A DNA stretch of 64,000 nt from Escherichia phage vB_EcoM-101117BS1. The stretch's first letter is position 1. Each line of letters opens with the position of its first letter. Positions 1,248-62,504 of this stretch are shown piece by piece. A program made the position numbers and the translations under genes. Below the pieces are notes generated by a model. It was given only the letters and a program-made list of their open reading frames with translations. It did no database searches and was not told the origin of the DNA. The stretch is taken from the sequence record MZ234018.1. One strand, written 5' to 3'.

Positions 1248-1880
1248 ATGATTTATTATATGCACAAAAATCCACCGTTTAAATACGGTAAATTTCCTGA
1301 TGCACAATGTTATAATATAACGCCTGATGAAAATAACCGTGGATATCTTATTGGCACAATTTTTGTAATTGTTAAAGATAACGAAATCGTTGCCTGGGCA
1401 GATTTTAAAGGTACAACATATGATGTTAATCCGGTGCCTTTCACATATTACAATTTAATGGATTTGGCATACGATTATAATTGGTTTAATCATGACACTT
1501 TGGCTCATATTGAAGGTGTAGGATTTGATATTTCATATTCGGAATACACTTTAAGCCCTATGAGTCGAGCCCATAAAGAACCTGAATATTTTTCATTTAG
1601 GAAACGTGTAAACTTTAAACGCAGCACAGAGTATGTCGGTGGAATCTTTGTTAAAGATAATCGAATTATTCGTATTAATTATCCTTTGAGCGTTAGTCAA
1701 AAAGATATTGATGTTGATTTAGATTTCACTGAAAATAATATTAATAATATTGCTTCTGTGTATTTTGGTATCGATCACAAAATTGTAATATGTGGATATG
1801 AATTACCGTTTGAAGAACAGCCTAAAGTAAAAGTTTCTATTGACGATCAAATTTTTAATGCTTTTATGAATAAAGGTTAA
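1248..1880 (+). CDS. 61.2-like protein with two internal VKDN-module repeats (possible anti-DarT factor AdfA homolog)
   Basis: 210 aa; two copies of a module containing I/V-F-V-K-DN; C-terminal SIDDQIFNAFMNKG shared with the next ORF; AdfA link is from memory. Confidence 0.65.
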   Translation: MIYYMHKNPPFKYGKFPDAQCYNITPDENNRGYLIGTIFVIVKDNEIVAWADFKGTTYDVNPVPFTYYNLMDLAYDYNWFNHDTLAHIEGVGFDISYSEYTLSPMSRAHKEPEYFSFRKRVNFKRSTEYVGGIFVKDNRIIRINYPLSVSQKDIDVDLDFTENNINNIASVYFGIDHKIVICGYELPFEEQPKVKVSIDDQIFNAFMNKG

Positions 1881-7101: not shown

Positions 7102-7725
7102 ATGATTATTAATCTTGCAGATGTTGAACAGTTATCTATAAAAGCTGAAAGCGTTGATTTTCAATATGATATGTATAAAAAGGTCTGTGAAAAATTTACT
7201 GACTTTGAACAATCCGTTCTTTGGCAATGTATGGAAGCCAAAAAGAATGAAGCTCTTCATAGGCAGTTGAATAAAATCATTAAAAAGCATTTAACTAAAT
7301 CACCTTATCAGTTATATCGTGGTATATCAAAATCAACAGAAGAACTTATTAAAGATTTACAAGTTGGAGAAGTGTTTTCAACGAATAGAGTAGATTCATT
7401 TACTACTAGTTTGCTCACAGCATGTTCTTTTTCTTACGCTGAATATTTTACTAAAATAATACTTCGCTTAAAAACTAATAAAGCTTTTAATTATTCTGAC
7501 CATATCAGCGATATTATACTTTCTTCTCCTAATACTGAGTTTAAGTACACGTATGAAGATACTGATGGATTAGATTCAGAGCGTACTGATAACTTAATGA
7601 TGATTGTGCGTGAACAGGAATGGATGATTCCAATTGGAAAGTATAGAATAACTTCTATTTCAAAAGAAAAATTACACGATTCATTTGGAACATTTAAAGT
7701 TTATGATATTGAGGTAGTTGAATGA
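7102..7725 (+). CDS. modB: ADP-ribosyltransferase ModB
   Basis: 207 aa; R-S-E-type ART motifs (YRGISKS, STNRV, EQEWMIP); paralog of the next ORF. Confidence 0.8.
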   Translation: MIINLADVEQLSIKAESVDFQYDMYKKVCEKFTDFEQSVLWQCMEAKKNEALHRQLNKIIKKHLTKSPYQLYRGISKSTEELIKDLQVGEVFSTNRVDSFTTSLLTACSFSYAEYFTKIILRLKTNKAFNYSDHISDIILSSPNTEFKYTYEDTDGLDSERTDNLMMIVREQEWMIPIGKYRITSISKEKLHDSFGTFKVYDIEVVE

Positions 7726-8324
7726 AATACTCAGTAATGCAACTAAAAGATTTTAAAATAAAATCAATGGATGCATCGGTGCGTGCTTCTATTCGTGAAG
7801 AATTACTTTCTGAAGGGTTTAATTTATCTGAAATTGAACTTTTAATTCATTGTATTACTAATAAACCAGATGACCATACTTGGTTAAATGAAATAATCAA
7901 ATCTCGTTTGGAACCAAACGATAAACCTCTTTGGAGAGGTGTTCCAGCTGAGACTAAACAAGTATTAAATCAAGGAATTGATATTATTACATTTGATAAA
8001 GTAGTATCAGCTTCATATGATAAAAATATAGCTCTACATTTTGCTTCTGGTTTAGAATATAACACACAAGTTATTTTTGAATTCAAAGCTCCTATGGTAT
8101 TCAATTTCCAGGAGTATGCTATAAAAGCTCTACGCTGTAAAGAATACAATCCAAACTTTAAGTTTCCGGATAGTCATCGTTATCGTAATATGGAATTAGT
8201 TTCAGATGAACAAGAAGTAATGATACCAGCTGGAAGTGTATTTAGAATTGCAGATAGATATGAGTACAAAAAGTATTCAACATACACTATCTATACTCTT
8301 GATTTTGAAGGATTTAATCTATAA
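7722..8324 (+). CDS. modA: ADP-ribosyltransferase ModA
   Basis: 200 aa; WRGVP, SASY, DEQEVMIP motifs; ATGA overlap with modB. Confidence 0.8.
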   Translation: MKYSVMQLKDFKIKSMDASVRASIREELLSEGFNLSEIELLIHCITNKPDDHTWLNEIIKSRLEPNDKPLWRGVPAETKQVLNQGIDIITFDKVVSASYDKNIALHFASGLEYNTQVIFEFKAPMVFNFQEYAIKALRCKEYNPNFKFPDSHRYRNMELVSDEQEVMIPAGSVFRIADRYEYKKYSTYTIYTLDFEGFNL

Positions 8325-57846: not shown

Positions 57847-57876
57847 AAGGACTCCTTCGGGAGTCCTTTTTTATTT
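57847..57876 (+). terminator. intrinsic terminator
   Basis: AAGGACTCC-TTCG-GGAGTCCTT followed by TTTTATTTT. Confidence 0.75.
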
Positions 57877-57896: not shown

Positions 57897-57926
57897 GTTT
57901 ACAGTATGACTCCTTTGTGATAGTAT
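57897..57926 (+). promoter_or_regulatory. phage early promoter
   Basis: GTTTAC 57897-57902, 18-bp spacer, TAGTAT. Confidence 0.5.
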
Positions 57927-58326: not shown

Positions 58327-58355
58327 GTTTACTTTGGTACAGGATATGATATTAT
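58327..58355 (+). promoter_or_regulatory. phage early promoter
   Basis: GTTTAC 58327-58332, 17-bp spacer, TATTAT. Confidence 0.5.
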
Positions 58356-59088: not shown

Positions 59089-59285
59089 TGAAATTCTTTT
59101 TAGGTCAAACTGTTGAATTAAAGGGAATTGGTATACCTGGATTAATTTCTAAGGTTTTACCTGCATTTAAATTGGGAGATGTTCAAGTAAAAGATGCTTA
59201 TATTGTTTCCTGGGTAGATGGAAATGAAGACCTTCGTATGGGTGATGAATTATCTCCTATCTATGGATTAAAGGAATTAGTATGA
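59088..59285 (+). CDS. hypothetical protein (65 aa)
   Basis: ATG overlaps the previous stop. Confidence 0.5.
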   Translation: MKFFLGQTVELKGIGIPGLISKVLPAFKLGDVQVKDAYIVSWVDGNEDLRMGDELSPIYGLKELV

Positions 59286-59488
59286 ATATAATTAATAAGA
59301 TTTTTGGAATTCAGTACATTAAGGTCACATATAAAGTAACAGATAAAAATCCGTATACAGATGAACATGAAGAACCACAAGTTAAGTCTATTATATTAGA
59401 AAAGGACCCTAACTGGCCAGTTGAATTTCGTCTTCCTTGCTATGGTCATTGGGCTGATGTTGAAATTATAAGCATTGAAAATGTCTGA
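59282..59488 (+). CDS. hypothetical protein (68 aa)
   Basis: ATGA overlap. Confidence 0.5.
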   Translation: MNIINKIFGIQYIKVTYKVTDKNPYTDEHEEPQVKSIILEKDPNWPVEFRLPCYGHWADVEIISIENV

Positions 59489-59939
59489 GTTAGAGATTAG
59501 AAGCAATTTTAGGTGGCCATCATGTGCATTAAGTAATTTCGCCAAATGGCCTTTCGTTATGGATGGTATTCAATTTGGAGGTCTTGAAGGATTCCTCCAA
59601 GGGTGCAAGGTGAAAAATGTTGAACAACAACGTCGTATATTTGGGTTATCCGGGCTTGCCGCCCAACAAGCTGGAAGGTCTTATGCAAGAGCTCAGGACC
59701 GTGGGACCCTCTTCTGGCTGGGAGTTCCATTTTCAAGATACTCCCCAGCGTGGAAAGAGTTGTATACAAATGCATATTTTGAAGCAGCGATTCAAAACAA
59801 GGGGTTTCGTGATGCCTTACAAGCCTCAAAAGGAAAAGTTTTGAAGCACAGCATGGCTAGTGGTCTAACAAAAGATGATACAATACTAACCGAAGCTGAA
59901 TTTATTGATGTGTTAAACCTATTAAGAGACTCTCTATGA
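59481..59939 (+). CDS. NADAR-like (YbiA/DUF1768-type) protein, putative ADP-ribose/N-glycoside hydrolase
   Basis: ALSNFAKWPFVMDGIQFGGLEGFLQGCKV resembles the NADAR FSNF..WP...DG....E.yfQa.Kf core; 152 aa. Confidence 0.55.
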   Translation: MSELEIRSNFRWPSCALSNFAKWPFVMDGIQFGGLEGFLQGCKVKNVEQQRRIFGLSGLAAQQAGRSYARAQDRGTLFWLGVPFSRYSPAWKELYTNAYFEAAIQNKGFRDALQASKGKVLKHSMASGLTKDDTILTEAEFIDVLNLLRDSL

Positions 59940-60775
59940 AGCCTACTATTTTGACTGATATTGATGGAGTATGTTTAAGCTGGCAATCAGGCCTTCCTTA
60001 TTTTGCTCAGAAATATAATCTTCCGTTAGAACATATTTTAAAAATGATCCAAGATGAGAAATTTATTTCTCCTGGTAAACTCTTTAATTGTGATGAAGAA
60101 CTTGGCGTCAAGTTAATTGAAAAATACAATCGTTCAGATTTTATTCGTTACTTGTCTCCATATAAAGATGCCCTGTGTGTAATTAACAAATTAAAAGAAG
60201 ATTATAATTTTGTAGCTGTTACAGCATTGGGTGATTCTATTGATGCTTTGCTGAATCGTCAATTTAATTTGAATGCTCTTTTTCCTGGTGCCTTCTCAGA
60301 AATATTGATGTGTGGTCATGATTCTTCAAAAGAAGAGTTGTTCAAAAAGGCAAAAGAGAAATATAACGTAATTTGTTATATTGACGATCTCGCTCACCAC
60401 TGCGATCATGCGAGTGAAATATTAAATGTTCCAGTTTATTGGATGGCTCGAGGAGAGCGTGACAGTATTCCAAAAACTGCACAGCGAGTTTATACATGGA
60501 ATGATGTAGAGAATAAGCTTTTTCCATCGAAGGAAAATAAAGAAAGTTTTGATAGTGAAAAATTTATAAAAGATGTAATTGAGAAGATGATCAAAAACGA
60601 TTCTTTTCCTTGGAACACTACCTGGAGAACTCCTGGATTTAATCCTTATAATCATCTATATCATCCATATCAGACACATCCGTTTCAGACATGGAACTAT
60701 ATTAAACCTGGTGGCATAGAGTATTTGTATAATAGACCTACTAGTGGTGATAATATTTTCCAAGGAGCATTCTAA
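59936..60775 (+). CDS. HAD-superfamily phosphatase-like protein with aromatic/His/Pro-rich C-terminal tail
   Basis: Motif I ILTDIDGV at the N-terminus, later YIDD; tail FPWNTTWRTPGFNPYNHLYHPYQTHPFQTWNY. Confidence 0.55.
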   Translation: MKPTILTDIDGVCLSWQSGLPYFAQKYNLPLEHILKMIQDEKFISPGKLFNCDEELGVKLIEKYNRSDFIRYLSPYKDALCVINKLKEDYNFVAVTALGDSIDALLNRQFNLNALFPGAFSEILMCGHDSSKEELFKKAKEKYNVICYIDDLAHHCDHASEILNVPVYWMARGERDSIPKTAQRVYTWNDVENKLFPSKENKESFDSEKFIKDVIEKMIKNDSFPWNTTWRTPGFNPYNHLYHPYQTHPFQTWNYIKPGGIEYLYNRPTSGDNIFQGAF

Positions 60776-61044
60776 TGTTTGTCGTTCACACTATTTATGA
60801 AAATGAAGGTAATACTACACGTGATTACGGTCACGTAAATCAATTTTTTAGATGCAATCCAGAATTCCGAGCTCAAAAAGACGAACGAATTTTTAAAAAA
60901 TGTGTAGAGCAAGGTTTCATTTACGTCAAGCACTGGATGCAAGGAAATAAAGTTAGAACAACGTACCACAGGTCTTTGACTGAGCTTAATGATGAATTGA
61001 TTTATAATAGAGCTGTAAACCAAACTCTAAAGGATGAACAATGA
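60775..61044 (+). CDS. hypothetical protein (89 aa)
   Basis: AAGGAG RBS; ends at the ligase start. Confidence 0.55.
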   Translation: MFVVHTIYENEGNTTRDYGHVNQFFRCNPEFRAQKDERIFKKCVEQGFIYVKHWMQGNKVRTTYHRSLTELNDELIYNRAVNQTLKDEQ

Positions 61045-62504
61045 TTCTTAAAATTCTGAACGAAATAGCATCTATTGGTTCAACTAAGCAGAAGCAAGCA
61101 ATTCTTGAAAAGAATAAAGATAATGAATTGCTTAAACGAGTATATCGTCTGACTTATTCTCGTGGGTTACAGTATTATATCAAGAAATGGCCTAAACCTG
61201 GTATTGCTACCCAGAGTTTTGGAATGTTGACTCTTACCGATATGCTTGACTTCATTGAATTCACGTTAGCTACTCGGAAATTGACTGGAAATGCGGCGAT
61301 TGAGGAATTAACTGGATACATCACCGATGGTAAAAAAGATGATGTTGAAGTTTTGCGTCGGGTGATGATGCGAGACCTTGAATGCGGTGCATCAGTATCT
61401 ATTGCAAATAAAGTTTGGCCAGGTTTAATTCCTGAACAACCTCAAATGCTGGCAAGTTCTTATGATGAAAAAGGCATTAATAAGAATATCAAATTTCCAG
61501 CCTTTGCCCAATTAAAAGCTGATGGAGCTCGGTGCTTTGCCGAAGTCAGAGGTGATGAATTAGATGATGTTCGTCTTTTATCACGAGCTGGCAATGAATA
61601 TCTAGGATTAGATCTTCTTAAGGAAGAGTTAATCAAAATGACTGCTGAAGCCCGCCAGATTCATCCAGAAGGTGTGTTAATTGATGGCGAATTGGTATAC
61701 CATGAGCAAGTTGAAAAGGAACCAGAAGGCCTAGATTTTCTTTTTGATGCTTATCCTGAAATTAGTAAAGCTAAAGAATTCGCCGAAGTAGCTGAATCAC
61801 GTACTGCATCTAATGGCATCGCCAATAAATCTTTAAAGGGAACCATTTCTGAAAAAGAAGCACAATGCATGAAGTTTCAGGTCTGGGACTATGTTCCATT
61901 AGTAGAAATATATGGTCTTCCAGCATTTCGTTTAAAATATGATGTACGTTTTTCTAAACTAGAACAAATGACATCAGGCTATGATAAAGTAATTTTAATT
62001 GAAAACCAAGTAGTAAATAACCTAGATGAAGCTAAGGTAATTTACAAAAAGTATATTGACCAAGGTCTTGAAGGTATTATTCTCAAAAATATCGATGGAT
62101 TATGGGAAAATGCTCGTTCAAAAAATCTCTATAAATTTAAAGAAGTAATTGATGTTGATTTAAAAATTGTAGGAATTTATCCTCACCGTAAAGACCCTAC
62201 TAAAGCAGGTGGTTTCGTTCTTGAATCAGAGTGTGGAAAAATTAAAGTAAATGCTGGTTCAGGCTTAAAAGATAAAGCCGGTGTAAAATCGCATGAACTT
62301 GATCGTACTCGCATTATGGAAAATCAAAATTATTATATTGGAAAAATTCTAGAGTGCGAATGCAACGGTTGGTTAAAATCTGATGGTCGCACTGATTACG
62401 TTAAATTATTTCTTCCGATTGCGATTCGTTTACGTGAAGATAAAACTAAAGCTAATACGTTCGAAGATGTATTTGGCGATTTTCATGAGGTAACTGGTTT
62501 ATGA
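61041..62504 (+). CDS. 30: ATP-dependent DNA ligase
   Basis: 487 aa; adenylation motif I KADG; MILKILNEIASIGSTKQKQAILEKNKDNELLKRVYRL. Confidence 0.95.
   Translation: MILKILNEIASIGSTKQKQAILEKNKDNELLKRVYRLTYSRGLQYYIKKWPKPGIATQSFGMLTLTDMLDFIEFTLATRKLTGNAAIEELTGYITDGKKDDVEVLRRVMMRDLECGASVSIANKVWPGLIPEQPQMLASSYDEKGINKNIKFPAFAQLKADGARCFAEVRGDELDDVRLLSRAGNEYLGLDLLKEELIKMTAEARQIHPEGVLIDGELVYHEQVEKEPEGLDFLFDAYPEISKAKEFAEVAESRTASNGIANKSLKGTISEKEAQCMKFQVWDYVPLVEIYGLPAFRLKYDVRFSKLEQMTSGYDKVILIENQVVNNLDEAKVIYKKYIDQGLEGIILKNIDGLWENARSKNLYKFKEVIDVDLKIVGIYPHRKDPTKAGGFVLESECGKIKVNAGSGLKDKAGVKSHELDRTRIMENQNYYIGKILECECNGWLKSDGRTDYVKLFLPIAIRLREDKTKANTFEDVFGDFHEVTGL

Follow-up and report, generated by a model that had tools for sequence, protein, structure and literature searches.

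Structures of NADAR proteins and their de-ADP-ribosylation of guanine were described by Schuller et al. 2023 (PMC11543638), where a phage variant carrying His was also noted, and the NADAR families are told apart by a residue of the last strand, the YbiA family having Glu there, the DarG1/BC4488 family Asp and the phage gp30.3 proteins His (PMC11543638, PMC11125620). The role of the latter protein in T4 was addressed by Johannesman, Carlson and LeRoux 2024 (PMC11257639), whose phage crosses mapped DarTG1 resistance to gene 30.3, renamed adfN: its deletion sensitised T4 and T2 to DarTG1 by ~4 logs, ectopic AdfN rescued RB69 on DarTG1, and T4 AdfN became inactive upon the E36A or K43A replacement. 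In the same study, purified T4 AdfN stripped ADP-ribose from DarT1-modified DNA and did not bind DarT1, and its activity was largely restricted to T-even infections, for which hydroxymethylated DNA is the authors' favoured, as yet unproven explanation. In vitro, T4 gp30.3 hydrolysed guanosine-ADPr but not thymidine-ADPr (2024 Toxins paper, PMC11125620); cytidine-ADPr was not removed by the T4 NADAR, and G-ADPr was taken off RNA (2026, PMC12945103). Furthermore, a 2025 transposon screen lost adfN insertions only on DarTG1 hosts (HIDEN-SEQ preprint 10.1101/2025.11.20.689424). T4 AdfN did not rescue uninfected cells from DarT1 toxicity and protected only during T-even infection (PMC11257639, PMC11125620); because this rescue is missing in uninfected E. 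coli, we consider the term "antitoxin" inaccurate for AdfN. The methods of PMC11125620 give the construct as "gp30.3; residues 1-208", yet gp30.3 has 152 aa and T4 gp61.2 (AdfA) has 208 aa, and the "1-208" probably reflects a misprint or the length of a tagged construct.

Several described proteins resemble AdfN to a lesser or greater extent. [quoted passage not shown] AdfA (gp61.2) is an anti-DarT factor as AdfN is, but a non-enzymatic DarT1 binder (PMC11257639), whereas AdfM (Tk.4) is a T4 anti-DarT macrodomain directed against DarTG2, i.e. thymidine-ADPr (HIDEN-SEQ preprint 10.1101/2025.11.20.689424). DarG1 (BC4488 family, e.g. the Geobacter lovleyi NADAR 8bat), the antitoxin of DarTG1, possesses Asp where AdfN has His and a basic N-terminal extension which AdfN lacks; moreover, AdfN is not encoded beside darT and, in contrast to an antitoxin, leaves DarT1 toxicity in uninfected cells unrelieved. 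E. coli YbiA (2b3w), a housekeeping riboflavin-intermediate N-glycosidase encoded in a LexA-controlled operon, has an N-terminal extension and E125, whereas AdfN has H123. The NADAR of Phytophthora nicotianae (8bau) comes from a eukaryote, contains additional elements at the N-terminus and as insertions, and has E125 as its distinguishing residue.

We analysed a stretch of 64,000 nucleotides from Escherichia phage vB_EcoM-101117BS1 (MZ234018.1), here called the window, which is a Tequatrovirus genome. The features discussed below, with the evidence on which each is placed, are:

1248..1880, + strand: homolog of adfA (gene 61.2), the other described anti-DarT1 factor (homology)
59481..59939, + strand: adfN (T4 gene 30.3), 152 codons and a stop (ORF read, PF08010, T4 synteny)
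59481..59488, + strand: 8-nt overlap of 30.4 and adfN (ORF coordinates)
59586..59588, + strand: E36, codon GAA, catalytic Glu corresponding to E48 of YbiA and E43 of the Phytophthora NADAR (hmmsearch/hhalign alignment)
59607..59609, + strand: K43, codon AAG, catalytic/ADP-ribose-binding Lys corresponding to K55 of YbiA and K50 of the Phytophthora NADAR (alignment)
59617..59844, + strand: ORF 30.3', located within adfN in the +1 frame and also annotated for T4 (ORF list, T4 comparison)
59847..59849, + strand: H123, codon CAC, the residue ending the last strand by which the clade is defined (model and hhalign register)
59892..59933, + strand: C-terminal helix, residues 138-151, gone in the inactive RB69 allele and intact here (model, DNA alignment)
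59936..59939, + strand: ATGA, 4 nt shared by the adfN stop and the 30.2 start (ORF coordinates)
59936..60775, + strand: gene 30.2, HAD-superfamily hydrolase with a 5'(3')-deoxyribonucleotidase-like fold (motifs, model, Foldseek)

The gene order around adfN is exactly that of T4 (30.8, 30.7, 30.6, 30.5, 30.4, 30.3, 30.2, 30.1, 30 encoding the ligase, alt.1, alt), and over the surrounding 4.7 kb many T4-like E. coli phages show 96-97% identity. The initial annotation, made from the sequence alone, had placed the ORF next to DNA ligase; the ligase is indeed present at 61041-62504, but two genes downstream and not directly adjacent. The reading frame extends from the ATG at 59481 to the TGA at 59937-59939. 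A program-made ORF list starts it at TTG 59475, two codons earlier, but we take ATG 59481 as the start since the T4 annotation and all homologs begin there. The product of 152 aa with NADAR core motifs, as first described, was recovered, all quoted motifs (LSNFAKWPFVMDGIQF, EGFLQGCKV and W..ELYTNAYFEAAIQNKGFRDALQASKGKVLKH) being found in the translation. It is identical to T4 gp30.3 at 150/152 positions, with the two exceptions (K22Q, M125I) both falling at positions variable within the family, and matches PF08010 (Phage_30_3) over the full model length with 234 bits (gathering cut-off 36, E=5.3e-70). This score, homologs in 1510 phage records and 12 synonymous against 2 non-synonymous substitutions with regard to T4 show that the ORF is not a chance one. 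Hence, window AdfN is like T4 AdfN in length, neighbours, E36/K43/H123 and the C-terminal helix, and differs by the two replacements and by being paired with another adfA allele (N164, RB69-like backbone).

We are highly confident that this ORF is adfN and that its product removes guanine-linked ADP-ribose from phage DNA, thereby defeating DarTG1. The present analysis established which gene this is, its fold, its catalytic residues and the integrity of the allele, and activity and phenotype are taken from the T4 literature; by analogy, the window allele would behave as T4 AdfN. An NADAR-type ADP-ribose hydrolase countering DarT, as initially proposed, has been demonstrated experimentally for T4 AdfN, which is 99% identical (PMC11257639, PMC11125620, HIDEN-SEQ preprint). 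In the mechanism that we propose, host DarT1 would ADP-ribosylate guanine in replicating phage DNA, and AdfN, made during infection, would cleave the ribose-guanine N-glycosidic bond via E36, K43 and H123, leaving a clean template on which replication could resume, and the abortive-infection defence of DarTG1 would be neutralised. Its target would be the DNA lesion, attacked enzymatically, with the toxin left unbound, and the enzyme would be specific for guanine-linked ADP-ribose, but act neither on the thymidine-linked (DarT2) nor on the cytidine-linked form. AdfN would be efficient only in T-even infection, probably through a preference for hydroxymethylcytosine DNA, although a T-even co-factor may serve as an alternative explanation.

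Pfam holds the gp30.3 proteins in a separate family, PF08010, and its NADAR model, PF08719, gave no match to the adfN product alone at E<=1, meaning that the profile search originally suggested as a check fails for the single protein. Likewise, a single-sequence phmmer search of the PDB retrieved just a spurious ATP pyrophosphatase match (E=0.62). As no direct PF08719 match was available, NADAR membership was shown by profile and structure instead. A profile of 62 aligned full-length adfN homologs had E. coli YbiA as its sole match in the PDB (E=0.0055), 24 of the 62 proteins individually matched PF08719 (best E 1.5e-7), and hhalign of the same alignment against YbiA yielded 94.2% probability (E=1.1e-7) over adfN residues 15-122. 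Furthermore, the AlphaFold2 model built on this alignment (pLDDT 93.5, pTM 0.89) forms a single compact domain with the YbiA-like arrangement of an alpha-helical core flanked by small beta sheets, for which Foldseek found only YbiA (2b3w, E=1.7e-4, TM 0.68) and the ADP-ribose-bound Phytophthora NADAR (8bau). The second suggested check, a comparison of the predicted structure with YbiA, was therefore positive. The adfN product is a NADAR-fold enzyme and an intact orthologue of T4 AdfN. It comprises the core domain only (152 aa), homology with YbiA beginning at residue 15 versus residue 27 of YbiA.

The spacing of E36 and K43, 7 residues, equals that of E43 and K50 in Phytophthora 8bau. E36 is invariant in 62/62 of the aligned homologs, as is H123 in this alignment, and among 148 representatives drawn from 50%-identity clusters E36 is kept in 144 and K43 in 145. 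In the model, H123 directly follows the strand 120-122, and since hhalign puts K122 opposite YbiA V124, H123 stands opposite YbiA E125. The adfN product thus carries His at the position where the YbiA family has Glu and the DarG1/BC4488 family Asp; it also lacks the N-terminal extension of the latter and a darT neighbour, as no DarT-like gene was found beside adfN, whose neighbours are 30.4 and 30.2. Having His123, AdfN is a member of the phage His-type clade, which comprises 1,677 clusters at E<=1e-3, and the label "YbiA-type" given at first has to be dropped in favour of this separate clade. It is hardly conceivable that AdfN acts as a YbiA-type housekeeping N-glycosidase on riboflavin-pathway intermediates, given that the residue corresponding to E125 is His, and remains so in 142/148 representatives, that the N-terminal 26 residues of YbiA are missing, and that the genetics indicate DarTG1.

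The strong conservation of the AdfN catalytic residues also bears on whether AdfN might block DarT1 stoichiometrically by binding, like AdfA(R164H), and not by catalysis, a behaviour for which there is a precedent in another phage NADAR said to work without enzymatic activity (PMC11257639 discussion). For T4 AdfN this is effectively refuted, as a two-hybrid interaction with DarT1 was absent, E36A and K43A lose function, and the purified enzyme strips ADPr from DNA (PMC11257639); for the window protein we give it next to no credence, and retain catalytic removal of the lesion.

As already recognised in the initial annotation, the window also encodes the ADP-ribosyltransferases of the phage, with alt from 62742 to the window end and modB/modA at 7102-8321, besides the 61.2-like gene listed above (1248-1880). 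Alt, ModA and ModB act on protein arginines, whereas all tested NADAR activity was on base-linked ADPr. AdfN could chiefly serve this phage ADP-ribosylation, either editing the products of the three enzymes or degrading soluble ADPr signals, with the anti-DarT effect being secondary. Besides the shared location in the window, this is supported by a 2022 survey that had already published the idea of T4-like NADARs as early genes together with ARTs and regarded soluble ADPr derivatives as the preferred candidates for their substrates (PMC9503650), and by the removal of G-ADPr from RNA by the T4 NADAR in vitro (PMC12945103). However, adfN is dispensable on K-12 and essential specifically with DarTG1, and it adjoins no ART gene, alt lying 2.8 kb away with four genes in between. 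Together with the mismatch in substrates, these points render such a primary role very improbable, and we keep DarTG1-dependent guanine modification as the target. As to alt itself, its residues 1-416 share ~71% identity with T4 alt, compared with 99-100% for the ligase and alt.1 on its flank, which points to a putatively mosaic or fast-evolving allele.

Broken adfN alleles are not rare. The only natural loss-of-function allele described so far, that of RB69, a phage sensitive to DarTG1 (PMC11257639), contains an extra T at gene position 411, leading to TGA after T137 and loss of the terminal helix, as seen in a DNA alignment with the RB69 record; this T is absent from window adfN and from T4. 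Frameshift hybrids of the adfN and 30.3' frames (P0014 and P0016, one of them from phage vB_Eco_NR1) and deletions in which the C-terminal part of AdfN has become joined to the N-terminus of gp30.7, gp30.8 or gp30.4 (P0015, P0051, P0094) were also encountered. As all five lack the catalytic half or H123, sensitivity to DarTG1 is predicted for the corresponding phages, although some of these public alleles may be assembly artefacts. That the window carries such a decaying or inactive allele is nevertheless extremely unlikely, as its frame runs to full length, no catalytic residue is missing, the C-terminal helix is retained, and the differences from T4 are the 12 synonymous and 2 non-synonymous ones given above. 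Furthermore, a 100%-identical AdfN protein is encoded by phage FriedrichZschokke (Bas41), which is DarTG1-resistant; Bas35-47, T2, T4 and T6 all are, with RB69 as the sole sensitive phage (PMC11257639). We hence regard the allele as very probably functional.

Upstream, gene 30.4 (68 aa, 59282-59488) ends with a stop at 59486-59488, and no strong Shine-Dalgarno sequence was found upstream of the adfN start; this, together with the 8-nt overlap, suggests that adfN translation is probably coupled to that of 30.4. A strong terminator-like hairpin (9-bp stem and T-run, 57847-57868) followed by two extended -10 TG promoter-like sites (57898-57926, 58328-58355) lies upstream of 30.8 and 30.7 and is the likely start of the transcription unit bearing adfN. 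A promoter scan returned 23 sigma-70-like sites versus 20.5 +/- 4.2 in shuffled sequence, i.e. no enrichment, and for this reason no promoter is claimed for adfN itself.

Downstream, the 4-nt overlap noted at first was recovered, as a 279-aa ORF starts at 59936 and the shared letters are ATGA, and its designation as a HAD phosphatase is supported at the fold level. The gp30.2 protein, 96% identical to T4 gp30.2, displays the four HAD motifs (DxD; S/T; K; DD) and a Rossmannoid fold with a cap: among 48 homologs, D8-x-D10-G11, K132 and D150-D151 are invariant, and T96 nearly so. Foldseek with its model matched 105 HAD structures at E<=0.001, the best being 2jao, a cytosolic 5'(3')-deoxyribonucleotidase (E=1.5e-8), to which the gp30.2 profile has a weak match as well; the Pfam models gave none. 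Residues 1-220 are modelled confidently and the tail is disordered, and this C-terminal tail of ~55 residues is aromatic/Pro-rich and variable or absent among homologs.

The overlap had also been taken to suggest co-translation of adfN and 30.2; as a sign of a functional pair we do not accept it. ATGA-type junctions occur at 30.5/30.4, 30.1/30 and 30/alt.1 as well, and each of the seven junctions between 30.6 and alt.1 has an overlap of 1-8 nt. In distant phages the adjacency is mostly lost: an Acinetobacter phage alone has gp30.2 beside adfN, a Proteus phage has it five genes off, and the Karamvirus, Rhizobium and Ralstonia phages have no gp30.2 within 3 kb of adfN; in distant phages gp30.2 tracks the ligase and not adfN. 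In addition, none of ten long family members is a HAD fusion, and the text of the T4 transposon screen names adfN alone for DarTG1. Given the seven overlapping junctions, the tracking of the ligase, the missing fusions and the screen, the 4-nt overlap is no evidence of a functional pair. It is very unlikely that gp30.2 would be the phage helper behind the T-even restriction of AdfN beyond hydroxymethylation, e.g. by processing the product or an intermediate of de-ADP-ribosylation, with the 30.3-30.2 pair constituting the whole anti-DarTG1 system here.

Within adfN, ORF 30.3' is open in the window and 85% identical to its T4 counterpart, compared with 98.7% for adfN. All of the T4 differences in the overlap (11/11) are silent in the adfN frame and change the 30.3' product, which gives no indication that a 30.3' protein is under selection. 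The substitution pattern hence lends no support to 30.3' as a real overlapping gene.

The second anti-DarT1 factor is less readily interpreted. Window AdfA is 83% identical to RB69 AdfA and 73% to T4 AdfA, the latter two being 68% identical to each other, and has Asn at position 164, the significance of which was described in PMC11257639: RB69 carries the non-neutralising R164, and T4 has His. An Asn164 allele is not described in that paper, and as the residue is neither Arg nor His, activity cannot be inferred from it, leaving AdfN as the only anti-DarTG1 factor in the window with a confidently predictable function. Immediately downstream, a 118-aa ORF (1882-2238) replaces the 54-aa gene 61.1 of T4. 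Its sequence is 32% identical to the C-terminal half of AdfA, of which it is a diverged paralog, and a near-identical C-terminal motif, SIDDQIFNAFMNRG, occurs in both.

Distant homologs of the His-type domain occur in rather different settings. In five proteins (P0250, P0259, P0274, P0315, P0345) the domain, with E, K and H kept, is fused to other domains, the partners including a GDSL hydrolase, Lgt, a RodA/FtsW-like membrane domain and BspA-type leucine-rich repeats; these predicted fusion proteins suggest that the clade has cellular, possibly envelope-associated uses. In Klebsiella phage KaAlpha (Karamvirus) and Ralstonia phage RSP15 (Ackermannviridae), the adfN homolog lies within tRNA gene clusters (L005, L008), and in Rhizobium phage P10VF (Pootjesviridae, L007) it adjoins a DNA helicase near denV and is mis-annotated as "putative homing endonuclease". 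A bacterial origin or DarT neighbourhood was considered for the His-type homologs on long contigs and rejected, as these contigs are jumbo-phage-like and DarT is not nearby. In the jumbo-phage-like metagenomic contigs L011-L014 (up to 308 kb, P0041), the gp30.3 homolog is located three genes from a NUDIX hydrolase and close to a Thg1-like gene, on the opposite strand; this neighbourhood may be an ADP-ribose-processing one.

The adfN gene is already known; publications of 2023-2026 covered its fold, its catalytic residues, which substrates it accepts and what it does in vivo. The main value of our study is one of validation, since a very divergent NADAR missed by the Pfam NADAR model, as well as its anti-DarT role, was read from raw sequence. 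Residual novelty resides only in side questions on the T-even restriction of AdfN, on what H123 contributes, on the N164 allele of AdfA and on cellular fusions of the His-type domain. For the phage itself, the presence of an intact adfN means that it should plate on E. coli carrying DarTG1, which bears on host-range prediction and on the design of phage therapy.
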